From Candidatus Brennerbacteria bacterium (lineage in GTDB: Bacteria; Patescibacteriota; Minisyncoccia; UBA6257; GWB1-50-10): a stretch of DNA of 64,000 bases. The notes under the pieces are model-generated. The model was given only the letters and a program-made list of their open reading frames with translations. It was not told the origin of the DNA and made no database searches. The position numbers were made by a program, and so were the translations under genes. The stretch spans positions 8,592-72,591 of the forward strand of contig JACPEK010000004.1 of NCBI GenBank assembly GCA_016183535.1, written 5' to 3'. Positions 14,662 through 61,554 of the stretch are shown here, piece by piece (the first letter of the stretch is position 1; each line of letters begins with the position of its first letter).

Positions 14662-15750
14662 ATGCGCATCCTTGCGATCGAAACGAGTTGCGACGAGACG
14701 GGAATCGCGCTCATTGAGGCGACCGGCGGCGTGCGCGCGCCAAGAATCCGCATCCTCAAAAATCTCGTCTCGTCGCAGATCGCGGTGCATGCCCCTTTCG
14801 GCGGCGTGGTGCCAAACCTCGCGAAACGCGAACACCTTAAAAATCTTCCCGTGTTGTATGGGAAAATTTCTGCAAACTCGAAATCCGAAATGCTGGATCC
14901 CGGACAAACTCGCGATCTCAAATCAAAAATTCAAAAAATAGATCTGGTCGCCGTGACGGTCGGACCCGGCCTCGAACCGGCCCTCTGGACCGGCATCACG
15001 TTCGCCAAAGAGCTTTGGAAAAAGCTCAAAACTCAAAATCCAAACATCAAATTAGTAGGCACGAATCACCTCGAAGGCCACCTTTATAGTTTTCTTCTCG
15101 CTAAAAACTATCAACTAAAAACTAAAAACTTATTTCCCGCCATTGCGCTCATTGTATCGGGCGGCCACACCATTCTTCTCACGATGGACTCGCCCGTGAG
15201 GTGGAAAAAAATCGGGGAGACGCGGGACGATGCGGTGGGCGAAGCGTTCGACAAAGTGGCGCGGCTTCTCAACCTTCCCTACCCGGGCGGCCCCGAGATT
15301 GAGAAGCTCGCAAATCGCGGAAACCCCGAAGCGATCGCTTTCCCGCGCCCGATGCTCGATCAAAAGAATTACGATTTCAGCTTCTCGGGACTTAAAACCT
15401 CGGTGCTTTATTACGCGCGAGACCACAAACCAACAACCAACGACCATAATCTAAAAGCCGATATCGCCGCTTCCTTCCAACAAGCCGCCATAGATGTTCT
15501 CATTTCAAAAACCAAACGCGCCACAAAGGAATTCGGCGCGCGATCCATCCTTCTCTCGGGCGGCGTCGCCGCGAATCGCGCCCTCCGAAAAAGGTTATTA
15601 GTCGTAAGTCGCAAGCTATCAGTTAATTTCATGGCCCCACCCATGAAATTCAACACCGACAATGCCGTTATGATCGGCGTTGCGGGATACATGAGCTTCC
15701 TCCGTAAAAAGGCGCGACGCTTTGCCGCGCAGGGAAATCTGGATCTATAA
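14662..15750 (+). CDS. tsaD: tRNA N6-adenosine threonylcarbamoyltransferase TsaD
   Basis: Kae1/TsaD motifs (MRILAIETSCDETG, VSGGHT, CTDNA). It contains two unusual A-rich low-complexity in-frame insertions. Confidence 0.95.
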   Translation: MRILAIETSCDETGIALIEATGGVRAPRIRILKNLVSSQIAVHAPFGGVVPNLAKREHLKNLPVLYGKISANSKSEMLDPGQTRDLKSKIQKIDLVAVTVGPGLEPALWTGITFAKELWKKLKTQNPNIKLVGTNHLEGHLYSFLLAKNYQLKTKNLFPAIALIVSGGHTILLTMDSPVRWKKIGETRDDAVGEAFDKVARLLNLPYPGGPEIEKLANRGNPEAIAFPRPMLDQKNYDFSFSGLKTSVLYYARDHKPTTNDHNLKADIAASFQQAAIDVLISKTKRATKEFGARSILLSGGVAANRALRKRLLVVSRKLSVNFMAPPMKFNTDNAVMIGVAGYMSFLRKKARRFAAQGNLDL

Positions 15751-22025: not shown

Positions 22026-22712
22026 CTATCGTTTCAATCGTTCAAAGTCGACGAGCACAAAGAATCCCGCCAGCGCGAGAAAAAGCGCCGGCACGAGGAT
22101 ATTCTCATACTCGAAGCGATAAATAAGGAAGTTGAAAACCGCATGCATCGCACCGGCGATCGCGAGACCAAGCGCGACGAAGCGCCGCGGATTCTTCCGT
22201 ATTCGGCCGCGCGCCCATGCGTATCCGACAAGCGACGAAGCGAGGGCATGGAGGAGCGTTGCCCCCACGAACCGATAAATAAGAATCGAGAGCGCGCCGC
22301 CCGCCGCGAAGAAGACTCCGAGTGAGGCTGAGAGCGGATATGCCGACCCCGTCACAAAAATATTCTCAACCGTTGCAAAACCCAGTGCGGCGGCAATCGT
22401 ATAGATCATCGCGTCTACCGGCTCATCAAAGGCGGGGTTGCGGCGCACCGCGAACCATGCCGCGAGAAATTTGAAGAATTCTTCGAGAAATGCGAGGGTT
22501 GCGACGAGAATCACGAACTCGCCTTTCAAAAAATAATCCGCGACGCTCTGGATCGCAAAAGTGGGAACGGTAACCGCGGCACCGAAAAGAAAGGTTTTAA
22601 TAATGAGACGCTTCGGTTCGGGATGAAGATCTTCTCGAAGAAAAAAGAAGAGCCAGACGAGCGCGGGGACGAAGGCGGCGGCGAGCACGATGAACACGTT
22701 CGCTACTTCCAT
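22026..22712 (-). CDS. PrsW-family intramembrane protease-like protein
   Basis: EEFFKF and GFAxVEN plus conserved His motifs characteristic of the PrsW family. The start is probably MEVANVFIV; the track ORF is extended upstream. Confidence 0.7.
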   Translation of the reverse strand: MEVANVFIVLAAAFVPALVWLFFFLREDLHPEPKRLIIKTFLFGAAVTVPTFAIQSVADYFLKGEFVILVATLAFLEEFFKFLAAWFAVRRNPAFDEPVDAMIYTIAAALGFATVENIFVTGSAYPLSASLGVFFAAGGALSILIYRFVGATLLHALASSLVGYAWARGRIRKNPRRFVALGLAIAGAMHAVFNFLIYRFEYENILVPALFLALAGFFVLVDFERLKR

Positions 22713-24955
22713 GGGTTCATCATGAGAAATTCGCGCTCCCGCCGGAAGTTTTTCCCGCCGGCAGGAAGATTTTGATAGAGCGCTTCGGTGACAAACGGCA
22801 CAAACGGATGGAGCATCACAAGACACTCCATGAGGATCGCTTCGAGGAGGTGATAGGCGGCGGCCGCTTTTTTTGCGTCGGCATCCTTCAGATCTTCCTT
22901 TTTTGCCTCGATGATTTTATCCGCAAACGTGTGCCAGAGATAATGATAGGCGCGTTCGGCGGCCCGATGGAATTGGAATTTTTCGATGAATCGCGCTACT
23001 TCTCTTTTTGCTTTCACCGCGCCCGCGAGATGTTTTTTGTCCGACACGGAAAAAACCGCGTGTTGATTGGCAAACTCCGGCGTGTAGTGCATAAGGACGA
23101 AGCGCCCCACGTTCCATATTTTTGTCGTGAAATTGCGATACCCGCGCACTTTATCTTCCGACAATTTAATATCACTTCCCGGCGCCGCGCCCATCACGAG
23201 CGAAAGTCGCGTGGCGTCCGCGTTGTATTTTCGGATCATGTCCAGGGGGTCGATCACGTTGCCGTCGGTCTTCGACATTTTCTTTCCTTTTTCGTCCCGC
23301 ACAAGGCCGTGGAGGTACACCGTGCGGAATGGAATATCGCCCAAGAGCGCACCGGTCATCAAGATCATGCGCGCCACCCAAAAAAAGAGAATATCGTAGC
23401 CGGTCTCCAATACGTCCGTAGGGTGATAGGTCGCAAGATCGCTCCCTTTCTTGGGCTTGCTCCGAGCGTAGTCGAGGGGCCACCCGAGCGTGGAGAAGGT
23501 CCATAGGCCGGATGAAAACCACGTGTCGAGCGTGTCCGGATCTTGCGCCCAATCCATCTCGGCTCCGCCAGCTGGCGGATCTCCCGCTATCATCTCATTG
23601 CCGTTGTCCGCCGAAACCTTAGCGAAGGCGCGGTGGTACCACACCGGAATCCGGTGGCCGAACCAGATCTGGCGCGAGATGCACCAGTCCCGCAAATTCT
23701 CAATCCAGTGGAAATAGATTTTCTCGAAACGTTTGGGAATGATCTCGATCTGCCCGCCCGCGACCGCGGCGAGCATGATTTTTTTCAAAGTCGTCTCGCT
23801 CCCCGATCGGATGCCTTTAATCTTCGATTTCTCGAGCGTGAATTTTTTATTGACCGCCACAAACCACTGTTCTTTGATCTGCGGCTCGATCCGTCCTCCG
23901 CCTCGGCTTGAGGTCGCGATGCGGTGCACATACCCTTCCTCCACCTTCACCAAAAGGCTTTTTTGTCTCAATTTTTCGACGATCGCGGCGCGGGCGTCCC
24001 TTATCTTCATCCCTGCAAATTCCCCGGCCACGGGAAGGAGCTTTCCCCGCTCATCGATAATCTGTTCCCTGTCCAACCCGTGCCGTTCCGCGATTTCAAA
24101 GTCCGTCGCGTCATGCCACGGCGTAATGGTCATGGCGCCCGTGCCGAAATCCATATCCATCACTGCATCTTTCACGACCGTCGCAATCACGGGACCGTTG
24201 ATCCATTCAAGTGATAATTTTTCTCCGCCCTTATACTTCGCATATCGTTTGTCTTTCGGATGCACCACGACGTATTTGTCGCCGAACTTCGTCTCGGGAC
24301 GCGCCGTCGCGATCACAAAGGGGCCGTACTGGAGATAGTAGAGCGGCACCTTTTCTTCCCTCCATTCAATCTCATCGTCCGAAACGGTCGTCTGCATCTT
24401 CGGGTCCCAGTTCACAATACGCGCGCCGCGATAAATGAGACCCATGTCGTACATCCGTTTGAACGCGGTTGCGACCGCTTCTCCGCGCGCCTCATCGAGG
24501 GTGTACGCCTCGCGGCTCCAGTCGACCGACGCCCCCATCCGCCGCATCTGGTTCACAATCGTATCGTGGCTCTCCGCCGCGAACTCCCGCACCCGCTTCA
24601 AAAATTCCTCGCGCCCGAGATCGTGCCGATTCTTCCCTTCTTTCTTATAGATGAGCGACTCCACCTTCGACTGCGTCGCGATCGCGGCGTGATCGGTGCC
24701 CGGAAGCCAGAGCGCTTTCCTTCCCTTCATACGCCAGTACCGCACCATGATGTCTTCAATAACCAACATCGCGGCGTGACCCATGTGGAGGGTACCGGTG
24801 ACGTTCGGCGGCGGGAGAACGATCGTAAACGGCTTCGCGTTTTTCTTCGTCGCTCCTTTTGCGACACACGTATCGGGATTAAAAAAACCCGACGCCTCCC
24901 ATCGCCGATAGATTTCTCCCTCCACCGCGTTTCCGTCGTATTGAGGTTCAAGCAT
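22703..24955 (-). CDS. valS: Valine--tRNA ligase (short form)
   Basis: HIGH (PNVTGTLHMGHA) and KMSKT motifs, and a C-terminal coiled-coil-less short form (750 aa). Confidence 0.95.
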   Translation of the reverse strand: MLEPQYDGNAVEGEIYRRWEASGFFNPDTCVAKGATKKNAKPFTIVLPPPNVTGTLHMGHAAMLVIEDIMVRYWRMKGRKALWLPGTDHAAIATQSKVESLIYKKEGKNRHDLGREEFLKRVREFAAESHDTIVNQMRRMGASVDWSREAYTLDEARGEAVATAFKRMYDMGLIYRGARIVNWDPKMQTTVSDDEIEWREEKVPLYYLQYGPFVIATARPETKFGDKYVVVHPKDKRYAKYKGGEKLSLEWINGPVIATVVKDAVMDMDFGTGAMTITPWHDATDFEIAERHGLDREQIIDERGKLLPVAGEFAGMKIRDARAAIVEKLRQKSLLVKVEEGYVHRIATSSRGGGRIEPQIKEQWFVAVNKKFTLEKSKIKGIRSGSETTLKKIMLAAVAGGQIEIIPKRFEKIYFHWIENLRDWCISRQIWFGHRIPVWYHRAFAKVSADNGNEMIAGDPPAGGAEMDWAQDPDTLDTWFSSGLWTFSTLGWPLDYARSKPKKGSDLATYHPTDVLETGYDILFFWVARMILMTGALLGDIPFRTVYLHGLVRDEKGKKMSKTDGNVIDPLDMIRKYNADATRLSLVMGAAPGSDIKLSEDKVRGYRNFTTKIWNVGRFVLMHYTPEFANQHAVFSVSDKKHLAGAVKAKREVARFIEKFQFHRAAERAYHYLWHTFADKIIEAKKEDLKDADAKKAAAAYHLLEAILMECLVMLHPFVPFVTEALYQNLPAGGKNFRREREFLMMNPWK

Positions 24956-33942: not shown

Positions 33943-34090
33943 TGGTGTTTCTACGATACGCCGGAGGGAGGGACGGTGTCAACGAGAGTTTGTGCTAAAT
34001 CAAAAAAACACCATGGTGTTTTTTTGATCGCGCGAACATTGCACTGTGATGTTTTGGTGCGCGGTGAGGGATTCGGTGCCCTGCACAAAG

Positions 34091-34162
34091 TGGGCGCTGT
34101 AGGGATCGAACCTACGACCTTCTTGGTGTAAGCAAGACGTTCTACCACTGAACTAAGCGCCC
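34091..34162 (-). tRNA. tRNA-Val (anticodon UAC)
   Basis: Cloverleaf read by hand: GGGCGCT acceptor, GTTC/GAAC D-stem, anticodon loop CTTACAC, GTAGG/CCTAC T-stem, discriminator A. No encoded CCA. Confidence 0.85.
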
Positions 34163-34170
34163 GTTCTCAA

Positions 34171-34180
34171 ATGATACCAC
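34171..34180 (-). promoter_or_regulatory. Extended -10 element (TGgTATCAT) about 8 nt upstream of tRNA-Val
   Basis: Minus-strand tggtatcat directly upstream of the tRNA 5' end. Confidence 0.4.
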
Positions 34181-34441
34181 TGAGTCCCGAAAAATCATTT
34201 CTTAGTGGAAATAGATTTTTCGAGGATCCTCGATTTTGTAGCTCCGCTTCGCAGAGACAAAATCGGGACTAACCGCGCATTGCTTTTTAAGGGTAAATCA
34301 CTGCGTCAGTATAGGTAAAGAGAAATTCCTCGATTAAATAGATCAAGGAACGTTTGGGCGCGGCACTTGTACGATACGAATATCCAATGCTAAAGTTGCG
34401 AAAGGAGTGCTGATGGGATTGAAGGCAATCGGAGATCGCTT

Positions 34442-34513
34442 CGGCCTGTAGCTCAATGGCAGAGCAGTCGCCTTATACGCGATTGGTTGGGGGTTCGAGT
34501 CCCTCCAGGCCGA
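34442..34513 (+). tRNA. tRNA with anticodon UAU (tRNA-Ile2-like; would decode AUA)
   Basis: Hand-folded cloverleaf. The 7-bp acceptor CGGCCTG/CAGGCCG, D-stem GCTC/GAGC and anticodon stem GTCGC/GCGAT pair as expected. The anticodon loop is C-U-UAU-A-C. The T-stem is GGGGG/CCCTC, the discriminator is A, and no CCA is encoded. The body resembles the Ile/Met family. Confidence 0.7.
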
Positions 34514-34523
34514 CAAGGAAAAT

Positions 34524-36368
34524 TTAAAACGTGGTTAAGACGACGGGCTTCAGGCGGAACCCTCTGACCATCTGCTCGAATTCCGCCTGCTCGATCGTTT
34601 CTTTTTCCATCAACGTTTTCGCGATTTTCTCGAGTGCGGATTTGTGCTTTGTAATAACCTGCTTCGCGGTTATGAGCGCCTTCGTAATCACCTTGTTCAT
34701 CTCCTCGTCGATTTGCGCACCCACCGCCTCCGAGTAGTCCTTCTCGGATGCGATTTCGCGCCCCAAAAAGATAAGTTCTTGCGCTTTGCCGAACGCCCGA
34801 GGACCGAGACGCTCACTCATGCCATAGCGCGTTACCAAACCATGCGCGAGGTCGGTCGCCTGCCGGATGTCGTTTGAAGAACCCGTTGAAATATCTTTGA
34901 ACACCGCGAATTCCGCCGCATAGCCGCCGAACGCGACCGCGAGATCCGCGAGGAATTGCGACCTGGTACGGAGACGTCGCTCTTCAGTGGGAAGTTTCAA
35001 CGTGTACCCGCCCGCCATGCCGCGCGAGACAATCGAGATTTTATGGACGGGATCCGCATCTTTCAAGGAGGCCGCGACCAAGGCGTGCCCCGCCTCATGG
35101 TACGCCGTGATTTCCTTCTCTTTCACGGAAATGACGCGGCTCCGGCGCGCGGGACCCAGCATCACTTTCTCGATCGAATCCAGAATGTCTTTTTCTCTCA
35201 CGATTTTTCGATTCTCGCGCGCGGCCACGATCGCCGCCTCGTTCATGAGATTTGCGAGATCGGCGCCCGAGAACCCCGGCGTGCGCACCGCGACTGTTTT
35301 CAATTTCACGTCTTTCTCGAGCGGCTTTCCTTTCGCGTGAATAGCGAGAATCGCCTCGCGATCCGCGATGTCCGGCATATCCAGCACCACCCGCCGGTCG
35401 AAACGGCCGGGCCGCAGGAGCGCGGGATCCAAAATATCGGGGCGGTTCGTCGCCGCCATCACAATCACGTTTGTGTCGCGCTCGAAGCCGTCCATTTCCA
35501 CCAAGATCTGATTGAGTGTTTGTTCGCGCTCATCATGGCCTCCGCCCAATCCCGCGCCGCGCTCGCGCCCCACCGCGTCGATCTCGTCAATAAATATTAT
35601 CGAGGGCGCCGCGCGCTTCGCGGTCTGGAAGAGGTCGCGCACGCGCGACGCGCCGACCCCCACAAACATCTCCACAAACTCCGACGCGGAGAGGTGGAAA
35701 AACGGCGCGTTTGATTCACCCGCGACCGCGCGCGCGAGAAGCGTCTTTCCTGTGCCGGGCGGCCCCATGAGGAGCGCCCCGCGGGGGATGCGCGCCCCGA
35801 TCTCCAAAAATTTTTTCGGATGGCGCAGAAAATCCACCACCTCTTCCAATTCCTCTTTCGTTTCTTTGAGTCCCGCGACGTCTTTGAAGGTTACCTTGTC
35901 GCGCGAGGCGGAGAAGAGGCGAGGATTGATTTTCCCGAACGAAAACGCTTGGTTCGCGCCCGTCTTCGCCTGCCGGAAAATCCACCAGAAAATAGCGAGC
36001 ATAAGGAGAAGCGGGAGGAGCGTGGGGAGGATGGCGCCGAGCCAGTACGCCGCACCGCTCTCACCCTCCACACTTAAAGCCACCGCGCGGAGCGCTTCGT
36101 CGGAGACGCCATAGTTTCTCAAGGTTTCCGTAAGGCTTGCCTCTTTTTCTTTTTTTGACGCGCCGAGAGAGCCGTCGGCAAACATCACCGCAAGCTCATC
36201 GCCTCTCACCTCGATGCTTTTCACCTCTCCCGCCGCGATCCGGGCGGCGAGGGCACCGATCGAAACCGGAGGGGTTTTATCCCGTTCTCCGCTCCAGAGC
36301 GAAACCAACGTCGCAACAAAAAGAATCAGTGTTATACCGACGAGAAAATGGCGGGTGAGTTGTCTCAT
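34524..36368 (-). CDS. ftsH: ATP-dependent zinc metalloprotease FtsH
   Basis: Two N-terminal TM helices, an AAA+ Walker [12 protein letters not shown], and an HEAGH zinc motif. Confidence 0.97.
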
Positions 36369-36490
36369 GTGGGTATCACTATAAACGACTTCTCATTAAA
36401 AACAACACATCCGTGCGATGTGAAAGCGTCATCGAAAGGCGGGGGCGCAGAGGCTACGCCAATGATTCTTCGATTTTCAACCCACAAACG

Positions 36491-37666
36491 TTACTTCTTC
36501 AGCTTCAAAAGCGCTCTTCGCTCCGCGGGCTTCACCTCCTGCACCGCGAACACGTACGACTTCCCCATCACGAGTTGTTTCTTCATCTCCTCGATGCTTC
36601 CGAACTCCGTCACGTGAATCTGACCCTGTAAATCCGCGAAATTTATGAGCGCGCCGAAAGGATTCATGGCATACACCAATCCATTGACCTCCGTACCCGT
36701 GGGATAGCGCTCTGCGGCACCCACCCACGGATCGTCTTTAAGCGCCTTGAGCGACAGAGAAATTTTTCCGTCTTTGATTTCCGCGATTTTCACTTTCACC
36801 GCCTCGTCCAACTTCACCACCTCCTTCGGATTTTCCACCATGCGGTGGTCGAGTTCGGACACATGGATCAATCCCTCGACGGAGGGGTTGTCGGCAAATC
36901 GCACAAACACCCCGAAATCGGCAATGCCGGACACGATGCCTTCGATCACCTGCCCCTCGCCATAGTTCTTCACGAGTTCACGCATGGACACCTCGGCCGC
37001 TTCCCGTTCGGAGAGAATCAGCTTCCCGGTGCGGGGATTCGCATCAATGATTTTTACCGAAAGCTCCGTGCCCACAATGGCCTGGAGCATTTTTCCTATC
37101 TCGCTCTTATCTTCGGAAATGACCCGCGGATAGTGCTCGGGCGCGAGTTGGGAAACCGGTATAAACGCGGGGAGCCCTTCGAGGTCGGCGGTGAGACCTC
37201 CTTTATTCGCACCCGTCACCTTCACGGGAAAAGGCTCTCCTTTATCCTTTAATTCGACGGCGGCGGCCCACGCTTTTTGCCGCCCCGCCTCCGCGATCGA
37301 GAGTTCTACATAACCCTCCTCGTTGTCGAGCGCGACCACTTTCGCGTGGAGTGCGGCGCCGGGCTCGAGATTTTTGACGGCGCTCCGCGCACCCATGAGT
37401 TCTCCTTGATACACCACGCCTACCCCGTGCCGGCCGAGATCAAGAAGAATTCGGCGCGCGCCGCGCTCGAGGAGCGTTCCCTCGACGAGATCGCCCACCT
37501 TCAAGACGCCGAACGCCGCCGGTTCCTCCTTCACAAGCTCGGCGAGCCTCGAGATTGAATTTTTAGTTCCATTCGTCTGCATGAATATATTGAACGGCAT
37601 TTCAGCGTACCTTGAGAGCGGGGTAAAAATCAAGTATAAAGGGAGGGCGATCGTTATGGTTATCAC
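36491..37666 (-). CDS. S1 RNA-binding-domain protein (four S1 repeats; short ribosomal protein S1-like)
   Basis: Repeated S1 OB-fold segments (…G.V.G.V..I.DFGAFV…). The true start is probably MPFNIF or MQTNG near 37580-37600. Confidence 0.75.
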   Translation of the reverse strand: MITITIALPLYLIFTPLSRYAEMPFNIFMQTNGTKNSISRLAELVKEEPAAFGVLKVGDLVEGTLLERGARRILLDLGRHGVGVVYQGELMGARSAVKNLEPGAALHAKVVALDNEEGYVELSIAEAGRQKAWAAAVELKDKGEPFPVKVTGANKGGLTADLEGLPAFIPVSQLAPEHYPRVISEDKSEIGKMLQAIVGTELSVKIIDANPRTGKLILSEREAAEVSMRELVKNYGEGQVIEGIVSGIADFGVFVRFADNPSVEGLIHVSELDHRMVENPKEVVKLDEAVKVKIAEIKDGKISLSLKALKDDPWVGAAERYPTGTEVNGLVYAMNPFGALINFADLQGQIHVTEFGSIEEMKKQLVMGKSYVFAVQEVKPAERRALLKLKK

Positions 37667-38255
37667 TTATCATGGAGAAAACTACGTGAAGGCGGCGGCG
37701 GGATCCCTCGTATTCCTCGTCGATCCCACCGACGAGCGCTCATTCCGGAGCGCGAAGTTTGTGCTGTTCACCGAATCGCCCCCGCCGCTCATGAAAGGAG
37801 AAGGCACGGAAAATCTCCTCGCGCGGCGCGAACCTCTCCTTATCGCCGACGCGGGAGAGTACGAGGTGGAGGGTGTCCGCATCGCGGGATATCGCACGGG
37901 CATACGCGGTGAAACCTCTCATCTCGCCTACCGCGTCACGATGGAAAATCTCTCGCTCGTGTTCCTCGGCCATCTCACCGAACTCCCCGACCAAAAGACG
38001 GCGAGCGAGTTCGCTGACGCGGACATCTTGTTTGTGCCCGGAGGGGGAGCGCCGTGGCTTAAAGAGACGGACGCCGCGAAACTCGTGCGCCAACTCGAGC
38101 CCGGCATCATAATCCCCACGCTCGTCGGGAACCGCGCGTGCGAACGTTTCGTTAAAGAACTCGACGCGCAACCCGGCGCGCCCACCGACAAACTTACCCT
38201 CAAGAAGAAAGACGTCGTGCCGAAAGCGATGGCGGTAACGTGTCTCACCGCCTGA
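37656..38255 (+). CDS. Putative metallo-beta-lactamase-fold / UPF0173-like hydrolase
   Basis: About 200 aa starting MVITYHGEN. The YHGEN…LVFLVDP…LFVPGGG pattern suggests an MBL-like fold. The assignment is tentative. Confidence 0.4.
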   Translation: MVITYHGENYVKAAAGSLVFLVDPTDERSFRSAKFVLFTESPPPLMKGEGTENLLARREPLLIADAGEYEVEGVRIAGYRTGIRGETSHLAYRVTMENLSLVFLGHLTELPDQKTASEFADADILFVPGGGAPWLKETDAAKLVRQLEPGIIIPTLVGNRACERFVKELDAQPGAPTDKLTLKKKDVVPKAMAVTCLTA

Positions 38256-38760: not shown

Positions 38761-41313
38761 ATGGCACGCACCATTCACCCCACACCGGAAAAAGATCCGA
38801 AGAAAAAACCGGAGCAGGCGGCGCACGCCGCGCGGCGCGGAGCGGGGTCGCCTCCGCCCGCGGATTTACCCGCACCGGCGGGCGGCGTCGAAGCGCGCCC
38901 CATCGCGGACGAGCTCCGGGAGTCTTACCTCGACTACGCCATGTCCGTCATTGTGTCGCGGGCGCTCCCCGATGTGCGGGACGGCATGAAACCGGTTCAG
39001 CGAAGAATTCTCTGGGCGATGTGGGACCTCGGATTAACCCACGCCGCAAAGTTCAAGAAATCAGCGAATGTTGTGGGGGAAGTCCTCGGTAAATACCATC
39101 CGCACGGCGATATGGCGGTCTATGACGCGATGGCGCGCATGGCGCAAAATTTCTCCCTCCGCTACACCCTGGTCGACGGACAAGGCAACTGGGGTTCGAT
39201 TGACGGCGATCCTCCGGCGGCCATGCGTTACACAGAGAGCCGCCTCTCAAAAATCGCCGAGGAAATGCTCACCGACATCGAGAAGGAAACCGTCGTGTGG
39301 CGCGCAAACTACGACAGCTCCCGCCTCGAACCTTCTTATCTCCCTGCCAAACTCCCGAATCTCGTCGTGAACGGGACGGTCGGTATTGCCGTCGGCATGG
39401 CCACCTCGATCCCTCCCCACAACCTCGCCGAGGTCGCGGAAGCCCTCATTTATATCGCGAAGCATCCGGACATCGCGCTTGAAGAGCTCATGAGGTTCGT
39501 GCCGGGACCCGATTTCCCGACGGGCGGCGTAATTTACGACCGACGCGCGATCGCGAGCGCGTACCAGACGGGCCGCGGTTCCATTACCATGCGCGGCGTC
39601 GCCGAAATCGAGGAAGGAAAAAAGAACGCATTTCACATCATCATCACCGAGATCCCCTATCAGGTCAACAAATCCGACCTCGTGACGAAAATGGCGGAAC
39701 TCGTCACCGAAAAACGCATCGAGGGCGTAAGAGATATTCGCGACGAATCCGACCGCGAGGGGCTCCGGATTGTCTTGGATCTCAAAACCGACGCCGCGCC
39801 GCAGAAGATTTTGAACCAACTCTTCGAATACACCGAACTCCAGAAAAATTTCCACTTCAACATGCTCGCGCTCACAGACGGCCTCCAGCCGCAGATTCTC
39901 TCGCTCAAGGAGCTCCTCGCGGCGTACCTCGCCCACCGCGAAGACGTCATCCGCCGGCGCACCGCGTTCGATCTCGCGCGCGCGGAGGAACGCGCCCACA
40001 TCCTCGAGGGACTCGTGAAAGCGCTCGACGCGATCGATGAAGTCATCAGGATCATCAAAAAATCGGAAGACAAGGAGGAGGCGCGCGCCAACCTTATGAA
40101 AAAGTTTCAATTCACGGAAATGCAGGCGAATGCCATCTTGGAGATGCGTCTCCAGACGCTCGCCGCGCTCGAGCGTGAAAGGCTCGAGGGAGAACTCAAA
40201 GAAAAAAAGAAGCTCATCGGGGAATTGAAACTCATTTTGAAAACACCCGCGCGCATCACCGACCTGGTCATTGAGGAACTCGGCGAACTTAAAAAAGATT
40301 TCCCCGAACCGCGCCGCACGAAGGTTATTGCCTCCGGACTCAAGGAATTCAAGGATGAGGACTTAATCGCGAAAGAAGATATTGTGCTCGTCCTAACCGA
40401 AGACGGCTATCTCAAACGTTTGCCTCCCTCCGCTTTCCGTGCCCAGCGGCGGGGCGGCAAAGGCCTCATCGGTTTTGATCTCAAAGAAGAAGATCAGATA
40501 CGACAAATCACGGCGGCGACCACTCACGACAACGTGCTCTTTTTCACCGATCGCGGGCGCGCATTTCAAACCAAGGCGTATGAGATCCCCGTATCATCCC
40601 GCACCGCAAAGGGAAAATCAGTGTTGAACTTCCTCTCCGTTCCGCAAGGCGAAAAGATAACCGCGCTCGTCGCGTACGACGAGGCGGGCGCCCAAGGAAA
40701 GTTCCTCGCAATGGCGACAAAAGGGGGGGTTATTAAAAAAACCCCTCTCGGAGATTTTGCGAACGTACGCCGTTCGGGACTCGCCGCATTGAACCTTAAA
40801 AACGGCGACGCTTTACAGTGGGCGACGCTCTCTTCGGGAACGGATGAATTCATCCTTGTTACCGCGCAGGGAGCCTCTATCCGCTTCAAAGAAAAAGATG
40901 TCCGGCCGATGGGGCGGAGCGCCGGCGGCGTCGGCGCCGTACGCCTCAAAAAAGGAGACGAGGTCGCGGGACTTGATATAATAAGCGCGGGGGAAAAGTC
41001 AGAAATTAAAAATCAAAAGTTATTGGTCGTCATGTCGCGCGGTTATGCGAAACAAACACCCCTCAAAGAATACAAAGTTCAACGGCGCGGCGGCGGCGGG
41101 ATCAAGACCGCAAACGTCACCGAAAAAACCGGCCGCGTGATGGCCGCAATCATCGTGAGCGGAGAGGAAGAAGAGGTGCTCGCGTTTTCCTCGAAGGGCC
41201 AGGCACTCCGCACAAAACTCGCCGACATTCGCATCGCGGGTCGCGCCACGCAGGGAGTGCGCATCATGAATCTCGAGGCGGGGGATACCTTGATTGGACT
41301 TGTCTGCTTATAA
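38761..41313 (+). CDS. gyrA: DNA gyrase subunit A
   Basis: 850 aa with an active-site Tyr region (…AMRYTESRL…) and a C-terminal beta-pinwheel with a GyrA-box-like QRRGGKG motif. Confidence 0.95.
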
Positions 41314-43553: not shown

Positions 43554-43904
43554 ATGAACAACAAGAAAGTAGTGTCAGCGATAGCGATAGGAGTCGCGCT
43601 CGCAACGCCGCTCATCGGCTTTGCGCAACCGACGACCGTAAGCGGTGTTACGAATCTCATAAATAAGGCGCTCGGAATCATTCAGTATGTGTTCTTTATC
43701 GTCGCGGCGATTTTCATTATCGTGGCGGCCTTCAAATATCTGACCGCGCAGGGCGACCCCGAAAAGGTAGGGGCGGCGCGCCAGATGGTGATCTACGCGG
43801 TGATCGGCATCGCGGTGGCGCTTCTCGCGCTCGTTATAGACAACATTGCGGCAGATTTTCTCGGAACCAGCGCTCCAGCTGAAATAACTCCGGGTAATTT
43901 TTAA
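43554..43904 (+). CDS. TrbC/VirB2-like T4SS pilin family protein, paralog 3
   Basis: Motif AAFKYLTAQGDPEKVGAARQMVIYAVIGIAVAL. Confidence 0.75.
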   Translation: MNNKKVVSAIAIGVALATPLIGFAQPTTVSGVTNLINKALGIIQYVFFIVAAIFIIVAAFKYLTAQGDPEKVGAARQMVIYAVIGIAVALLALVIDNIAADFLGTSAPAEITPGNF

Positions 43905-45585: not shown

Positions 45586-45671
45586 GGGCAGGTGGCGAAA
45601 CGGCAGACGCGCGGGTTTTAGGAGCCCGTGGGAGCAATCCCGTGAGAGTTCGACTCTCTCCCTGCCCACCA
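45586..45671 (+). tRNA. tRNA-Leu (anticodon UAG), class II with long variable arm, CCA encoded
   Basis: Acceptor GGGCAGG/CCTGCCC. Anticodon stem CGGGT/GCCCG with loop TTTAGGA. Variable arm GGGA-GCAA-TCCC. T-stem GAGAG/CTCTC. Discriminator A followed by CCA. Confidence 0.85.
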
Positions 45672-45997: not shown

Positions 45998-46882
45998 TTA
46001 TCGGCGGCGTCCGTGGAAACTTTTGTGAACTTCCCGCAACTCTTTATTGGTTAAATGCGTGTAAACTTGCGTCGTTGCGATGTTCGCATGGCCCAAAAGC
46101 TCCTGCACCGACCGGAGATCCGCACCGTTTATCAAAAGATCGGTGGCGAAGGAGTGGCGAAGGAGGTGGGGATGTATTTTTTTGCCGCCGATGCCCGCTT
46201 TTCGCGCGTGAAAATCCACCAAGCGCTCAACCGCGCGCGGCGTGATCGGCCCGAGCGTCTTTCCTGCGCGGTCGAGGCTCACGAAGAGCGCTTCTTCTGT
46301 GTCTTGGCGTTTGTCCATATATTCCTTGAGCGCGCGCTTCGCCCCCTCGGAAAGGAACACCACGCGCACCTTTTCGCCCTTTCCCCGCACCGAAAATTCT
46401 CCGCGCGAGAGATCGAGCGTGCGCGGGAGCTTGCAGAGTTCCGAGAGTCGCAGACCGGTCGAGAAAAACACCTCAAGAATGGCGCGATCGCGGAGCGCGC
46501 GGAGGCCGGTCCCTTGGGGCGAGGCGAGGAGCCGCTCAAGTTCGCCGTACGAGAGTGTTTCAATGTCGCGGCGCACAACTTTCGGGAGTTCAATGGTCTC
46601 GGGCGGTAAGACCCCGATGCCGCGACGGACGAGATATTTCAAAAAATTGCGGAGTGCGATCACATAGTAACCTTGTGTCGCTTTTTTAAGATCGCGGCGA
46701 GCAAGGGAAAGACGAAACTTCCGCACCGCGTCTGCCGTGATGGCGCGCGGCGTCTTAACGCCCGTTTCTTTTAAGAATGCCGCGAGATAGCGTCCATAAT
46801 TTTCCTGCGTTTTCCGCGCGCGCCCGCGCTCAATCTCGAGATAGTCGAGGTATTCCTTCGTCAATTTTTCGAGTTCGGTCAT
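45998..46882 (-). CDS. Tyrosine site-specific recombinase, XerC/XerD family
   Basis: N-terminal SAM-like domain (YLDYLEIERG…). The catalytic R…K…HLLRHSFAT…R…Y(THL) residues are present. The start is probably MTELEKLTKEY; the track begins at 46918. Confidence 0.85.
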   Translation of the reverse strand: MTELEKLTKEYLDYLEIERGRARKTQENYGRYLAAFLKETGVKTPRAITADAVRKFRLSLARRDLKKATQGYYVIALRNFLKYLVRRGIGVLPPETIELPKVVRRDIETLSYGELERLLASPQGTGLRALRDRAILEVFFSTGLRLSELCKLPRTLDLSRGEFSVRGKGEKVRVVFLSEGAKRALKEYMDKRQDTEEALFVSLDRAGKTLGPITPRAVERLVDFHARKAGIGGKKIHPHLLRHSFATDLLINGADLRSVQELLGHANIATTQVYTHLTNKELREVHKSFHGRRR

Positions 46883-47015
46883 ATCATTATCATAACCCAC
46901 CCGTCGGAAAACGAGCACTCCGGATTCTACTCATCATTTCTCGTCATCGGCAAAAGCGGTTAATAAAATAACGAGCGGCGGCAGTGTAAAATCGCGCGAA
47001 AATACACGAGGAAAA

Positions 47016-54651: not shown

Positions 54652-55413
54652 ATGCGGATGTATTTTCATTTTCTTCGTCTGCCACACAAGCGCCGCGCGC
54701 TCCTCGCGGCCGCCATCCTCGCCGCTTCGATCGGTGTGAGCGCCTACTTCGTGGCGTCTTCCGCGCCGAATACTCCTCCGGCGTTTTCGGGGTCGCTAAC
54801 GCCAATAGTTGCGCACGCCGACCCCGCGCCTGAAGCGTCCAACCTCACCCAAGAGTTTACCCGGCAAGCCGTCGAGAAGCTCATCACCGACAACGAACCG
54901 CTCAAGGCGGAAGGCGCGGCACTTGAAGCGTATGCCGTCATCCCCGACGCGCCCGACGTCGCCGTCATCGTTTCAGAACTCATCGACCGCGAGCTTACGA
55001 CCGAACAACTCAAAACATCCGACCTCCTGACGCATGAATCGAACTCGAAAGAGATTCAGCTCGCCTACCTCTTTTTTATAAATGAAATTCTTGAAACGCA
55101 GGGGGGTGAAATGCCGGCGCTCGGCGCGGGTTCTCTCGCCACATACTTCACCGACACCGCGGCGAAGCTCCATGAAACCGCGGAGATTTTGAAAGCGGTG
55201 AAGACTCCTTCTTCTTGGCTCCCTCTCCACCGCGATCTCGTCGCATTCTTCCTCCGGCAGGGAAATATTTATCGCTCCCTCGGCGCGGCGAACACGGATC
55301 CGCTCCGGTTTATGATCGCGGCAACGCGCCTTCTTCCCGCCGAAACCGAGCGCGAGTTTCAAAAACTGCAGGCGACGATCGATCAAAAAATAAAGGATGA
55401 AAAGCTCATCTAG
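54652..55413 (+). CDS. Membrane-anchored or secreted helical protein, unknown function
   Basis: 253 aa with an N-terminal hydrophobic anchor. It overlaps the next gene by 17 nt. Confidence 0.5.
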   Translation: MRMYFHFLRLPHKRRALLAAAILAASIGVSAYFVASSAPNTPPAFSGSLTPIVAHADPAPEASNLTQEFTRQAVEKLITDNEPLKAEGAALEAYAVIPDAPDVAVIVSELIDRELTTEQLKTSDLLTHESNSKEIQLAYLFFINEILETQGGEMPALGAGSLATYFTDTAAKLHETAEILKAVKTPSSWLPLHRDLVAFFLRQGNIYRSLGAANTDPLRFMIAATRLLPAETEREFQKLQATIDQKIKDEKLI

Positions 55414-57103
55414 ACCCACTCTTGCCGCCGCGCTTATTTTTTCAATCGCTTCAAGCGGGATCGTATGGCCCGCGCCCGTGGCACGCGCCGCGTGCACCTC
55501 ATGGGAGCTCGTTTGGACCGCGACGCCTCCCGAACTTGAGATTCTAAATCCGGGTGATCGCATAGAACCTCCCTACTACGGCGGCCTCAATCCGGTAACT
55601 GCGGAGTCGTCTCCCGCCGCGCCAAACCTCCCCACGGGGAGCGAGGGAGAGTGGCGATGCATCAAGCAAGCCGCCGAACCGCCGGACTCTTCTCGTACGG
55701 AGGAAGAAAAAGCGCGGCCGGTCGGCATGGAACTCTGCGACCGCGCGGCGAAGCTCGCCGCGCGCCTCGGCGGACTCACCGCATTCAATCTCGACATAAA
55801 GGCGCAGATACAGACCGAGGCTTTGAACCGCATCAAAGATTATATGGGTGAGCAATTTAAAGACGCGACGGGCGTCAATCTTAATCTCAATGATCTCAAA
55901 AAGACGGCGTTCGACGCGGCGGGGAAATTTGCCAGCGATTTTGGAAAGGATTTGTGGGACAACAGCGGACTCAAGAAAGAGATAGATGATAAGATAAAGG
56001 CGATCGAGAAGGCGGGGATTGAAAAACTCAAGGAGCTTGGCGGAAAAGCCGCAGAGAAAGCTCTCGACACCGCAAAAGGCATCTTGAGCACCGAAGTGCC
56101 GATAACCGACCCCGAAGGGAATCGCCAGCGGGAAGAACTTAAAGACAAGCAGGATCGGTTGATTACCGAGCAAAAAATTGCGGAACTAAACGCCGACACG
56201 CGCCAGAAATGCGCCGAACTCCTCAAGACCACGAACGAGTCTATTAAGCGCGCACTCCTTTACCAACTCTCGACGCAGGTCGTCGAGTGGATCCAAACCG
56301 GCAAAACCCCGCAGTTTGTGAAACAGCCGGGTGTGTTTCTTGAGGAGAGCGGACGCCTCGCGCTCGACCGCTTCATCTCGCGCACCGCGCCGCGTCTTTG
56401 CCAGTCGTTCCGCACAAAAATCCAGCTCGAGATCCCGAGCGTCGCGAAGCGGGACAATCCCTTCTACGAAGAAATTACCTGTTCGCTCGACCGGGTGGTG
56501 AAAAACGCCGACAATTTCTACCAGGACTTCCGCAAAGGAGGATGGATCGCGTACTCGGAATCGCTCAAACCGAAGAACAATTACTTCGGCGCGTCGCTTA
56601 TGGCGCAGGATCAGGCGCTCGAGGAAGCGGCGCGCGCCAAGGAAGAAGCGGCGCGCGATATCGCCGCCGGGCGTGGCTACCGAAGTCAGCGGCAGTGCGT
56701 CGAGTGGGCAAAATACGAGCTCAAGCGGACGCCCGACCCTTTCATGTTGAGCGACACGCTTTCCGTCGGGAGCACTTTCTATGCGCGTACCGAGACGAGG
56801 ACGGGTACCACCAAGGAGGGAACGCCGCCCGGGGCGGAAGGATATACCAACACGAAAGGCGACCAAAAGTTCTGGGCCGCCGACGGTTTGTCGTTCTGGC
56901 AGTGCGAGCGCGACGAGATCACAAACCCCGGCACGGTCGCGGCAGGGCTTTCCGAAAAAGTCGCGCAATCGGACTTCGAGAGTCTCGCAAACGCCGACGA
57001 CGCATCGGTACTCCTCCAGACGATTGAGGACGCCATCGTGAACAAGCTCGCGAAATCCGGCGTGAAAGGCCTCAAGTCGCTCCTCCCCAAGGTATTCGAA
57101 TGA
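55397..57103 (+). CDS. Large secreted protein with coiled-coil region (candidate T4SS-associated extracellular component)
   Basis: 568 aa with a signal peptide (…ASSGIVWPAPVARAAC) and a Lys/Glu-rich helical middle. It overlaps the VirB6-like gene start. Confidence 0.5.
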   Translation: MKSSSRPTLAAALIFSIASSGIVWPAPVARAACTSWELVWTATPPELEILNPGDRIEPPYYGGLNPVTAESSPAAPNLPTGSEGEWRCIKQAAEPPDSSRTEEEKARPVGMELCDRAAKLAARLGGLTAFNLDIKAQIQTEALNRIKDYMGEQFKDATGVNLNLNDLKKTAFDAAGKFASDFGKDLWDNSGLKKEIDDKIKAIEKAGIEKLKELGGKAAEKALDTAKGILSTEVPITDPEGNRQREELKDKQDRLITEQKIAELNADTRQKCAELLKTTNESIKRALLYQLSTQVVEWIQTGKTPQFVKQPGVFLEESGRLALDRFISRTAPRLCQSFRTKIQLEIPSVAKRDNPFYEEITCSLDRVVKNADNFYQDFRKGGWIAYSESLKPKNNYFGASLMAQDQALEEAARAKEEAARDIAAGRGYRSQRQCVEWAKYELKRTPDPFMLSDTLSVGSTFYARTETRTGTTKEGTPPGAEGYTNTKGDQKFWAADGLSFWQCERDEITNPGTVAAGLSEKVAQSDFESLANADDASVLLQTIEDAIVNKLAKSGVKGLKSLLPKVFE

Positions 57104-58896
57104 TAAAGCGCATATTTTCAAACGAAAAATTCCGCGCGATCATGGGCGCCGCCGCCGCGCTCGCGATCCTCTTCTTCGTCATCCCCGAACCCGCGGGCGC
57201 CATCTTCGGCATCGATCTAAGCCCCGCCGGCCTCATCACATTCGCGTTCCGCGCGGTTGCGGCAATCCTTTCCTTCCTCATTGGCATCGCGTACATGATC
57301 GCGAGCTACTTTGTGAACTTCATGCTCCAGATGAACTACGACGTTCTTTCGACCAACAATGGCGTGGTGGACGTCGGATGGCGCATCGTCCGCGACGTGG
57401 CAAACCTCGGATTCGTTCTCGTTATTATTGTCATCGCAATCGCCACTATGCTCCGCATCGAGAGCTACGGCGCGAAAAAACTCCTCGTCCGGCTCATTAT
57501 GGCCGCCGTCATCGTGAACTTCTCGCTCGCGATCGCGGGCGTCTTTATCGACTTTTCCCATGTCCTTACCCGCTTCTTTCTCGAGGGAGGACTTGGCACT
57601 TCGAATGCATTCTCCCTCGCGGACAATCTCGGCGCCGCGTTCAGCCCCCAGCGCTTCACTATCGACTCCGGCGATCCTACGCCGCCCGACCCCTCTGAGC
57701 AGGCCGGCGCGTTCACGGGTTTCGCGACCGCAGTTTTGGTCGGCGTGTCGGGATCTATATTTTCCATCATCTTCATGTTGATCGCGACCTTGGTCGTGGC
57801 CGCCCTCGCTCTCATGCTCCTTATCCGCTATGTCGCGCTTTCCTTTCTTCTTATCTTCTCGCCGCTCGCGTGGCTCTTCTGGATCGTCCCCGCGCTCGAG
57901 AGCCAGTTTCATAAATGGTGGAGTAAATTTTTCCAATGGGTGTTCTTCGCGCCAGCGGTGTCATTCTTTATTTATCTCGCGATCACGAGCGTGAAGGCGC
58001 TCGGTTCAAAACCTCTCTCCGTCATCCCCGGCCTTTCGGGCGCGCTCCAGACGGTGGCGAGTCAGGGAGCGCAGATGGCGGTCCTCGCAGGCATCATGAT
58101 CGGCGGACTCATCGTCGCGCAGAGCATGGGTATCGCGGGTGCGGCGGGCGCGCTCAAACTCGCGAACAGCGCAAAGGCGGGCGCGCTCAAGTGGGCCGGC
58201 AAGAAAGCGGGAGAGGGCGGCACGCTCGCGCTCCGTAGCGAGAGAGGACGCAAGCTTACTTCCCTGATGCAGAAAACTCCCGGATTCCGGACCGCCGGCA
58301 CTTTCCTCGCGAGACAACGCCTCGCATTCGAAAAGAAAGCCGCCGACGAAGCAAAAAAGAAGCTTGGCATCACAAAAGATCTCAAAGAAAAAGCGCTTAT
58401 GTACGGCTCCGCCACCACCTCGAACGCCGAGCGGGTTCAGATCATGGATGACGTTTCGAAGGAACGCAACGCCCGAGTAAAGAAACAACAGTCGGAGCAA
58501 GCGAAGGTAGACGAGAAAGAAAACGAGGTCCGTGATCTCGAGAAACAGCGCGAGGAGGCGCGGTCAAAGGGAGACTTAGAAACCGTCGGGAAGCTCACGT
58601 TGAATATCAACGCCAAGATCGAGGAAAAAAAGAAGATCGAAGGGAGTGAATCTTACACGAAAGCGCGGGAAGCGGTGCGGGAGATTGAGGAGGTGATCGC
58701 GACGCTCCCGCAAGAAGCTCGCGAGGAACTCGCGAAAGCTGGTTACAAGGTAAGCAACACAAAACTCGGGGGGCTCTACGGAAGGGGAGATGCCGTCACG
58801 GCGACCGAGGGAGGATGGGAGAAAGTAAAAGCCGCGGTCAAAGCTGAAGAGGAAACCGGCGCGGCTCCCGAAAAGAAAACAGAGAAAAAGAAATAA
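57100..58896 (+). CDS. VirB6/TrbL-like polytopic membrane protein with charged coiled-coil C-terminal tail
   Basis: 598 aa with at least 6 TM helices in the first 330 aa, followed by a Lys/Glu-rich helical tail. The architecture is typical of Gram-positive-type VirB6 analogues. Confidence 0.55.
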   Translation: MIKRIFSNEKFRAIMGAAAALAILFFVIPEPAGAIFGIDLSPAGLITFAFRAVAAILSFLIGIAYMIASYFVNFMLQMNYDVLSTNNGVVDVGWRIVRDVANLGFVLVIIVIAIATMLRIESYGAKKLLVRLIMAAVIVNFSLAIAGVFIDFSHVLTRFFLEGGLGTSNAFSLADNLGAAFSPQRFTIDSGDPTPPDPSEQAGAFTGFATAVLVGVSGSIFSIIFMLIATLVVAALALMLLIRYVALSFLLIFSPLAWLFWIVPALESQFHKWWSKFFQWVFFAPAVSFFIYLAITSVKALGSKPLSVIPGLSGALQTVASQGAQMAVLAGIMIGGLIVAQSMGIAGAAGALKLANSAKAGALKWAGKKAGEGGTLALRSERGRKLTSLMQKTPGFRTAGTFLARQRLAFEKKAADEAKKKLGITKDLKEKALMYGSATTSNAERVQIMDDVSKERNARVKKQQSEQAKVDEKENEVRDLEKQREEARSKGDLETVGKLTLNINAKIEEKKKIEGSESYTKAREAVREIEEVIATLPQEAREELAKAGYKVSNTKLGGLYGRGDAVTATEGGWEKVKAAVKAEEETGAAPEKKTEKKK

Positions 58897-58908
58897 CCAA
58901 CACCCGCC

Positions 58909-60366: not shown

Positions 60367-60868
60367 TATGGCGACCTTCCAGATTCCACAATTCATTGAG
60401 CAACAACCGAAGGTGGTCGGGTTTCTCACGCTCCCGCAGTTCCTCTATCTCGCCACCGCGGGGGGGATAAGCTTCGCCGCATTTTACGTGTTCACGTTCC
60501 TACTCTGGCTTTTTGTGAGTGTGGTGGTCGTCGCGGCCGGCATCGCGCTCGCCTTCATAAAAGTGAACGGTCAGCCGCTCCCCGCGGTGCTTCGCGCCGC
60601 GCTCTCCTATTATTGGAAACCGCGCACATACGTATGGTCCCGCGCGCTTCAGGAGGAAACGCTCGATCTCTCGCAGATTGAGAAAATAGAAGCGCTCCGG
60701 AGACGGATGGGAATCGAAGAAAAATTAAAAAATCTCGCTCTTCAGGTAACGACAGGGAAGATTTTTTCGCGGCGCGGAAACGCTACGAACCCGCGCGCGC
60801 GCTACCAAACCGTCACCTACCTCACGGGAGAAAAAAAAGTCGCGCGGCGCGTGGATTACGGAGCGTAA
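60350..60868 (+). CDS. VirB3-like / PrgI-TcpE-like two-TM small membrane protein
   Basis: 172 aa with two adjacent TM helices near the N-terminus. It sits immediately upstream of the VirB4-like ATPase, as in Tn916 orf17 and Tcp systems. Confidence 0.5.
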   Translation: MLTFGSMATFQIPQFIEQQPKVVGFLTLPQFLYLATAGGISFAAFYVFTFLLWLFVSVVVVAAGIALAFIKVNGQPLPAVLRAALSYYWKPRTYVWSRALQEETLDLSQIEKIEALRRRMGIEEKLKNLALQVTTGKIFSRRGNATNPRARYQTVTYLTGEKKVARRVDYGA

Positions 60869-60886
60869 TCAGGGTAAACTCTACTT

Positions 60887-61528: not shown

Positions 61529-61554
61529 AGAAAGCTTCCGGCAATTTTTCTCCC

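Follow-up and report, generated by a model that had tools for sequence, protein, structure and literature searches.

The 64-kb stretch of Candidatus Brennerbacteria DNA examined here (the window, meaning the whole 64,000 nucleotides that were analysed) carries a tRNA gene at 34442-34513 of the plus strand, and its sequence supports the view that it encodes a genuine isoleucine tRNA with the anticodon UAU that decodes AUA. We place the probability at about 0.85 that it is a functional AUA decoder that replaces the usual pair of tRNA-Ile2(CAU) and TilS, and that it is an orthologue of the UAU tRNA kept at the ftsH locus in most Paceibacteria-class Patescibacteria. As described below, the UAU tRNA is the ordinary AUA decoder for its lineage and stands in the normal arrangement at a fixed spot next to ftsH.

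Isoleucine identity of the UAU tRNA

ARAGORN calls a tRNA-Ile with the anticodon tat at 34442-34514 (+), and the Rfam model RF00005 covers 34442-34513 from end to end with 70.3 bits against a gathering score of 29 (E 2.5e-13 in the 64-kb window). All 21 pairs of the cloverleaf form. The anticodon loop is C32-U33-U34-A35-U36-A37-C38, which is how a preliminary description of this DNA had read it, and there is no alternative register. The acceptor stem starts with C1-G72, and the discriminator A73 is followed by CAA, i.e., CCA is not encoded. No identical copy was found by an exact search of the genome contigs; the orthologue in a sister genome (L001) is 94.5% identical.

The criteria for isoleucine identity were taken from PMC9976931 and PMC1635315. 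G3 or A3 together with C70 or U70 discriminates tRNA-Ile from tRNA-Met (Silva et al. 2006, PMC1635315), U12-A23 and C4-G69 are Escherichia coli isoleucine determinants, and N6-threonylcarbamoyladenosine at position 37 (t6A37), which is expected on A37 tRNAs that read ANN codons, is a determinant for the bacterial isoleucyl-tRNA synthetase (IleRS) (PMC9976931). The window tRNA has the Ile-type elements A73, G3-C70, C4-G69, U12-A23, C29-G41 and A35-U36-A37. The window also contains tsaD, the gene for a t6A37 transferase subunit (14662-15750, plus strand; NCBIfam TIGR03723, 354 bits against a cut-off of 296).

Conservation across the lineage

Judged by its core gene content and its FtsH relatives, the window is part of a candidate phyla radiation (CPR) chromosome (Patescibacteria, Paceibacteria-class) and neither phage nor plasmid. 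Its core chromosomal genes include ftsK, recA, folD, glyA, ftsH, an S1-domain gene, gyrA, leuS, valS and tsaD, and its nearest FtsH relatives, 72-73% identical, come from Patescibacteria metagenome-assembled genomes (Jorgensenbacteria, Paceibacterota, Wolfebacteria and others). The comparison set consists of 80 GTDB species-level genomes retrieved via FtsH, with loci numbered from L001 onward; the FtsH tree mentioned below is a rough neighbor-joining tree with a midpoint root.

A tRNA-Ile(UAU) gene is present in 60 of the 80 related ftsH loci. It lies no more than 2.5 kb downstream of ftsH in 59 of the 60 and within 300 bp in about 42, it is on the ftsH strand in 51, and tRNA-Val is the next tRNA in 35. 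Ten of the 20 loci without it have less than 500 bp of downstream sequence and are uninformative, which leaves about 70 informative species; eight informative loci have neither a UAU nor a CAU tRNA near ftsH. The preliminary description had called such a tRNA rare in bacteria. This holds for the published surveys, which count 9-17 genomes (PMC3575796, PMC8450103); within the present lineage, however, UAU is the rule (60 of about 70 informative species).

Together with the window, the UAU tRNAs give 61 sequences, all of them distinct (alignment A1). Their cloverleaf is 99.3% paired, with both-sided (compensatory) changes in 19 of the 21 pairs; the observed covariation score was reached by none of 500 shuffles, and no slid register comes near it. 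C32-U33-U34-A35-U36-A37 and A73 are invariant (61/61), position 3-70 is G3-C70 in 58 and A3-U70 in the other three, U12-A23 occurs in 59 and C4-G69 in 51. Because the covariation, the invariant positions and the isoleucine determinants hold over 61 distinct sequences, a pseudogene or a chance fold is excluded. The preliminary description had named a one-base shift to a lysine or methionine identity, or a pseudo-tRNA, as results that would overturn it; neither is borne out by ARAGORN, Rfam or the covariation.

The first base pair displays a pattern of its own. C1-G72 starts the UAU tRNA in 20 of the 61 species, including the window, and these are scattered over several clades of the FtsH tree (columns 1 and 75 of A1). 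The tRNA-Val and tRNA-Leu of the window start with G1. To our knowledge, C1-G72 is unusual for bacterial elongator tRNAs except tRNA-Pro. It might be an identity or anti-determinant element.

Meaning of the AUA codon

The preliminary description had also pointed to AUA usage. In 52 window open reading frames (ORFs), AUA accounts for 147 of the 1134 isoleucine codons (13%), or 7.7 per 1000 codons. Where alignments of FtsH, GyrA, S1, RecA, serine hydroxymethyltransferase (SHMT) and ValS across the loci have AUA in a column, the other sequences have isoleucine in 46%, valine in 21%, leucine in 16% and methionine in 3.6%. In conserved columns this substitution profile is that of AUU and AUC and unlike that of AUG. 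Since AUA is used and substitutes like AUU and AUC, it means isoleucine; therefore, a decoder is needed and the UAU tRNA is the candidate. The claim that this is a canonical UAU tRNA is thus upheld by the agreement of ARAGORN and Rfam, by 61 distinct orthologues that covary around an invariant anticodon loop and by AUA codons that behave as isoleucine codons.

The tilS gene and its probable ancestral locus

The features of the locus are as follows.

34090-34162, minus strand: tRNA-Val(UAC), the usual neighbor of the UAU tRNA (ARAGORN, Rfam)
34163-34441: 279-bp spacer between tRNA-Val and tRNA-Ile, which are divergent with their 5' ends facing each other
34308-34451, plus strand: 3' remnant of a gene with a helix-turn-helix (HTH) and a LAGLIDADG-like part (nhmmer, tblastn, stop-to-stop frames, alignments A2 and A4)
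34442-34513, plus strand: tRNA-Ile(UAU), with U34 at 34474 (ARAGORN, Rfam, covariation in A1)
34524-36368, minus strand: ftsH, the conserved anchor of these loci (Pfam AAA and Peptidase_M41; 80 related loci)
36369-36490: 122-bp intergenic gap between the S1 gene and ftsH, the position of the cmk-like gene and tilS in the sister clade
36491-37666, minus strand: S1-domain protein gene, in the synteny block common to the tilS-bearing genomes
37581-38255, plus strand: Lactamase_B gene, in the same synteny block as the S1 gene and gyrA
38761-41313, plus strand: gyrA, in the synteny block common to the tilS-bearing genomes

A tblastn search, with E. coli TilS and then with a CPR TilS, over 1.22 Mb of loci plus the window found tilS in only three of the 80 loci (L033, L041 and L043), each time immediately upstream of ftsH, and Pfam confirmed the PP-loop and TilS domains (PF01171 and PF09179) in the three products. 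The three loci form one clade in the FtsH tree and none of them has a UAU tRNA. In its place, L041 and L043 have a CAU tRNA downstream of ftsH; L033 ends without downstream sequence. Three further tilS contigs (L120-L122) have the order gyrA(-), Lactamase_B(-), S1(+), cmk-like(+), tilS(+), ftsH(+) and DUF7544(+), followed in each case by a tRNA(CAU) beside a tRNA-Val(GAC). All five CAU tRNAs have G3-C70, A73 and U12 and are devoid of initiator features; they are therefore Ile2-type, G3-C70 being the published discriminator.

The window has the same order of gyrA, Lactamase_B, S1 and ftsH as the tilS-bearing block. Since S1 and ftsH are just 122 bp apart, the cmk-like gene and tilS are gone from the ancestral slot, and the downstream position that corresponds to the CAU tRNA carries the UAU tRNA. 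In none of the 60 UAU loci, nor in the window, is tilS present in this slot, and the pattern across the loci is a strict either/or: tilS and the UAU tRNA occur together in none. Neither tilS nor tRNA-Ile2(CAU) was found within the 64-kb window by ARAGORN, Pfam or tblastn. The link that the preliminary description drew between a UAU tRNA and the loss of tilS therefore stands at the ancestral tilS locus, where the slot is empty in the window and tilS occurs only in CAU loci, but not at the scale of the genome. With an anticodon of UAU rather than CAU and no tilS found, a lysidine step would be neither needed nor possible on the window tRNA.

Two other genes of the tilS-bearing clade (L041, L043 and L120-L122) keep fixed places. 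In every case tilS is preceded by a cytidylate-kinase-like or guanylate-kinase-like gene and ftsH is followed by a gene for a DUF7544/DUF4013 membrane protein; like tilS, both are absent from the window locus. Among the best 120 matches of a database search with the CPR TilS there were only Moranbacteria, entries with generic organism names and one labelled Candidatus Bathyarchaeia, and so, the search is not decisive on which lineages own TilS.

The alternative that survives best is that the UAU tRNA is a supplementary AUA decoder and that the rest of the genome encodes a full lysidine system, tilS plus tRNA-Ile2(CAU), a combination known from Lactobacillus plantarum and L. casei. Coexistence of tilS with a UAU tRNA is documented in lactobacilli (PMC3575796), the 64 kb examined here are part of a genome, and the eight informative loci with neither tRNA type near ftsH imply that such genes can move. 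But the two never coincide in the loci compared here, where tilS is present only alongside CAU tRNAs, and redundancy would be less expected in the strongly reduced genomes of Patescibacteria. We consider this explanation unlikely.

The flipped tRNA gene and its spacer

In the sister genome L001, ftsH, tRNA-Ile and tRNA-Val are on one strand and the two tRNAs abut. The window tRNA-Ile is flipped and convergent with ftsH, its 3' end being 10 nt from the ftsH stop codon. The same flip is present in independent metagenome contigs (L104 and L091) and in the Jorgensenbacteria contigs L111-L115; since independent assemblies reproduce it, the layout is not an assembly artefact. A UAU tRNA flipped relative to ftsH also occurs in several separate branches of the FtsH tree (L009, L010, L012, L014, L021, L025, L027, L067 and L077, besides the window), and in four of the flipped cases (the window, L009, L010 and L012) the tRNA 3' end is about 10 nt from the ftsH stop. 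The 3' junction of ftsH looks like a rearrangement hot spot.

As the preliminary description stated, the tRNA faces tRNA-Val across a structured 279-bp spacer. The spacer (34163-34441) folds better than shuffled sequences (z -2.4 on the plus and -3.9 on the minus strand). Its first approximately 145 nt contain hairpins and gave no homologue in blastn, its last 135-140 nt or so are the gene remnant, and Rfam at a permissive threshold detected no RNA family in it.

In contigs with the flipped layout about 130 nt upstream of the tRNA are conserved while the remaining spacer is not, and the variation falls on third codon positions. Stop-to-stop frames identify the conserved stretch as the C-terminus of an HTH and LAGLIDADG-like gene that encodes about 220 aa and is intact in relatives, where it often ends on the TAG formed by the tRNA's own U8-A9-G10 (34449-34451 in the window). 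The window retains the last 37-48 codons or so, with a frame that is open only from 34337, a stop at 34334-34336 and a frameshift. The remnant is matched by nhmmer at 34311-34440 (E 5e-35) and by tblastn at 34338-34445 (E 2e-12), where 80.6% of the amino acids are identical to those at residues 183-218 of the intact protein. Two other interpretations were rejected. The conserved 130 nt are not a promoter, a leader or an AUA-containing mini-ORF (MGLKAIGDRFGL, ending at a stop), because the stop-to-stop frames in relatives make them the end of the 220-aa gene, and the conserved TATATAAA is not a -10 box but the codons for Y-I-K of the PYIK motif.

The decay of this gene also accounts for the earlier remark that the tRNA has no obvious promoter of its own, which a sigma-70 scan confirms. 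The spacer is about 470 nt shorter than the Val-Ile interval of L111/L115, which contains the intact gene and, ahead of it, an extended -10 promoter (TGTGTTATAAT). Both the structure of the spacer and the lack of a promoter are thus explained by the decay of the upstream gene, which carries the promoter in relatives.

One could therefore propose that the window gene is a decaying or silent copy, flipped and on its way to becoming a pseudogene after its promoter was lost with the upstream gene. The failure to find a sigma-70 consensus, the deletion of the L111/L115 promoter and the stop and frameshift in the upstream remnant would fit this proposal. But the tRNA itself is intact, with every pair formed, the invariant positions kept and a close match to the L001 orthologue, the frequency of AUA demands a decoder for which no other candidate was seen, and a weak candidate promoter (TTGTAC-N17-TAAAGT, 34368-34396), below the scan threshold, lies inside the retained remnant. 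We regard a silent copy as quite improbable. The third alternative, that AUA is reassigned, e.g., to methionine as in many mitochondria, and that a Met-type UAU tRNA reads AUA and AUG, may be dismissed as extremely improbable; wobble would in principle let a UAU anticodon pair with both codons (PMC3575796), but methionine is no more frequent in AUA columns, which are Ile/Val/Leu columns, than in those of AUU and AUC, and the tRNA has C4-G69, C5-G68 and G3-C70 rather than the Met-type U4-A69, A5-U68 and C3-G70 (PMC9976931, PMC1635315).

A gene family at the 5' edge of tRNA genes

At least 1,329 members, about 220 aa long, make up the family to which the upstream gene belongs. Among the 120 matches listed, all source-named organisms are Patescibacteria lineages or carry generic labels, and the source annotations are hypothetical, HTH-containing or transposase-like. 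Among the families listed by Pfam, 40 of 40 members match HTH families alone, through an N-terminal HTH, even at E values up to 10, and NCBIfam gives only weak transposase-HTH matches. No LAGLIDADG model in Pfam or NCBIfam matched, a sequence search of the PDB found nothing, and Foldseek against the PDB with an AlphaFold model of a family member, which is confident (predicted local distance difference test, pLDDT, 89), found nothing significant. The motifs AGLFLYWGEGSK, NTDP, PYIK and FGHGTC are invariant.

In the DNA analysed here, every close homologue is directly 5' of a tRNA-Ile(UAU) on the same strand (18 of 18, plus four of four chosen independently of the tRNA), and the window and L009 each have a remnant 5' of such a tRNA. 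For nine distant paralogues with the same motifs (25-31% identity), the end falls between -15 and +44 nt relative to a tRNA gene start; the gene is tRNA-Gly(GCC) in six cases, tRNA-Val(GAC) in two and tRNA-Ile(UAU) in one. A tenth paralogue (L038) is at the end of its locus, without downstream sequence.

The patchy presence, the occurrence of both intact and decayed genes and the constant site of insertion suggest a homing-endonuclease-like element, free-standing and directed at tRNA genes. Alternatively, the family could be a WhiA-like regulator. Systems to compare are LAGLIDADG homing endonucleases, the LAGLIDADG-derived regulator WhiA and the free-standing homing endonucleases found in tRNA gene clusters, such as SegB of phage T4. 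Unlike LAGLIDADG homing endonucleases, the family genes lie outside any intron or intein; they are fixed at the 5' flank of a tRNA gene and often share its TAG as their stop. We found no description of this family in the literature searched.

Proposed decoding mechanism and history

We predict that U34, being encoded in the genome, pairs with the A of AUA and that IleRS charges the UAU tRNA, as would be consistent with A73, G3-C70, C4-G69, U12-A23, C29-G41, A35-U36-A37 and, for t6A37, tsaD. Presumably tilS is lacking in the rest of the genome, too. By analogy with Mycoplasma mobile, AUG would be discriminated by adaptation of IleRS and the ribosome together with competition from tRNA-Met; alternatively, U34 might be modified. 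In M. mobile, U34 is unmodified, IleRS is adapted by a Trp-to-Arg change and AUG is rejected by the ribosome (Taniguchi et al. 2013, PMC3575796), so that a special wobble modification, which the preliminary description called necessary, is not a known requirement. Profile scans found no U34-modification gene among the genes of the 64-kb window. An IleRS that accepts UAU would be expected to have Arg or Lys at the position of E. coli W905 or to be of the eukaryote type.

As for the history, the ancestral locus was most likely S1-cmk-tilS-ftsH followed by tRNA-Ile2(CAU) and tRNA-Val, an order that the Moranbacteria clade retains. The other lineages would have come to carry a UAU tRNA in this place, and tilS, presumably because it was no longer needed once the UAU tRNA was in place, would have been lost. 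In the window, the tRNA gene is flipped relative to ftsH as a unit with the upstream HTH/LAGLIDADG-like gene, which later decayed, the promoter being lost along with it.

Several observations weigh against this interpretation. The window tRNA has C38, whereas A38 is the E. coli isoleucine determinant, and the D-loop elements G16, U20 and U21 are unmatched. IleRS was not found in the window or in any related locus, where tblastn with E. coli IleRS over 1.2 Mb matched valyl-tRNA synthetase (ValRS) only. The absence of tilS covers the 64-kb window and the ancestral slot, and so, tilS and tRNA-Ile2(CAU) could be elsewhere in the genome. No sigma-70 consensus was found upstream of the tRNA on the plus strand. 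Finally, pairwise similarity is about 70% throughout among the Ile-UAU, Val, Ala and CAU tRNAs, and this does not separate descent from the CAU tRNA from descent from tRNA-Ile(GAU). Since tRNA similarity is uninformative in this respect, it is the position, downstream of ftsH and paired with tRNA-Val, that argues for an in-place switch from CAU to UAU.

Comparison with known systems

Bacterial tRNA-Ile(UAU) is known from M. mobile and other mycoplasmas, Bifidobacterium and Neorickettsia, and together with tilS from some lactobacilli; the surveys list 9-17 genomes and 371 unassigned metagenomic tRNA gene (tDNA(TAT)) sequences (PMC3575796, PMC4013482, PMC8450103). A 2026 preprint still terms UAU tRNAs rare cases (10.64898/2026.02.03.703510). 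Nothing tying Patescibacteria or CPR to tilS, lysidine or a UAU tRNA-Ile was found in the literature searched, which need not mean that it has never been reported.

The case most like the present one is M. mobile, which also has a reduced genome, a bacterial tRNA-Ile with a genomic UAU anticodon, AUA that still means isoleucine and a tilS gene gone from beside ftsH; the Mycoplasma tilS has its place between pth and ftsH, from which it is deleted in M. mobile (PMC1635315, PMC3575796). Unlike the single species-level event in M. mobile, where the tRNA resembles tRNA-Ile(GAU), the present case involves a deep, species-rich clade with the tRNA at the ancestral CAU position, and 20 of its 61 members have the unusual C1-G72 pair, again unlike M. 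mobile. Bifidobacterium and Neorickettsia likewise have a UAU tRNA-Ile and are without tilS, as the tilS slot is empty here, and their UAU tRNA is explained by a horizontally acquired eukaryote-type IleRS (PMC3575796, PMC8450103). With the canonical tRNA-Ile2(CAU) and TilS, the system described here has in common that AUA means isoleucine, the neighborhood seen in the sister Moranbacteria clade (tilS-ftsH, with the CAU tRNA by tRNA-Val) and the tRNA elements G3-C70, A73 and U12-A23. It differs from the canonical system in that the window anticodon is TAT in the DNA and that tilS was not found in the window.

Other features of the window and its relatives

ARAGORN found three tRNAs in the window, the third being tRNA-Leu.

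45586-45671, plus strand: tRNA-Leu(UAG) (ARAGORN)
22703-24955, minus strand: ValRS, a class I synthetase (synthetase family models)

The window ValRS is only 750 aa long; ValRS models matched to about position 695 of 860, and the C-terminal coiled-coil arm seems to be absent. The ORF of a PrsW-type protease (22026-22826, minus strand) is next to ValRS and overlaps its 3' end. In the region 4148-6023, the N-terminal part of methionyl-tRNA synthetase (MetRS) is matched only by a 225-aa ORF (5346-6023, minus strand), and the long ORF opposite this fragment (4148-5395, plus strand) has no Pfam match. The remainder of metG may be in another frame, as a frameshift, a split gene or a mis-chosen ORF.

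A type IV secretion system (T4SS) pilin gene is at 43554-43904, a tyrosine recombinase (45998-46918, minus strand) adjoins tRNA-Leu(UAG), and a cluster at 55397-63685 contains a PrgI-like gene (60350-60868), a TraG/VirB4-like P-loop ATPase (61555-63306) and several large ORFs without a Pfam match. The pilin, the recombinase and the PrgI/VirB4-like cluster may represent an integrated conjugative or type IV secretion element.

Directly downstream of tRNA-Val (minus strand) is a perfect 30-nt palindrome at 33999-34028 (ATCAAAAAAACACCA / TGGTGTTTTTTTGAT), which is probably a bidirectional terminator. It is just upstream of the promoter-like TTGACA-N18-TATCGT (33982-33953) of a PF04308 gene, an element that also precedes the orthologue of this gene in L001.

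Among the relatives, ARAGORN reports some tRNAs with an A34 anticodon: tRNA-Ser(ACU) in two Paceibacteria contigs (L068, 21367-21455, and L078, 17254-17343, both on the minus strand) and tRNA-Leu(AAG) in L116 (2179-2262, plus strand). Such tRNAs are very rare in bacteria (compare PMC4013482).

Significance

The window tRNA itself is ordinary for its lineage, and genes of this kind will already appear as tRNA-Ile(TAT) in genome annotations. The parts that deserve attention are the lineage-wide UAU pattern and the gene family that flanks the tRNA. A wider interpretation, which is tentative and which as a whole we lean against, joins the two: most of a species-rich Patescibacteria class would have left lysidine (TilS) behind by an in-place CAU-to-UAU switch of the ftsH-linked tRNA-Ile2, and would account for many of the tDNA-Ile(TAT) sequences noted in metagenomes in 2013, and an undescribed family of at least 1,300 HTH and LAGLIDADG-like genes would insert precisely at the 5' boundary of tRNA genes (Ile-UAU, Gly-GCC and Val-GAC) as a tRNA-gene-targeting homing element that rearranges loci and perhaps helped to spread the UAU allele.

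TilS and lysidine are regarded as near-universal in bacteria and as essential to them, and they attract interest as a drug target specific to bacteria; the UAU tRNA-Ile has so far been described as a rare exception in a handful of genomes. If most Paceibacteria lack TilS, this exception would become a major evolutionary solution, and there would be many natural replicates for learning how IleRS and the ribosome separate AUA from AUG without a modified cytidine. The pair of loci before and after the change, tilS-ftsH with a CAU tRNA and ftsH with a UAU tRNA, could serve to reconstruct how one decoding system is replaced by another. For the remodelling of tRNA loci in these reduced genomes, the HTH/LAGLIDADG-like family is a lead of its own.
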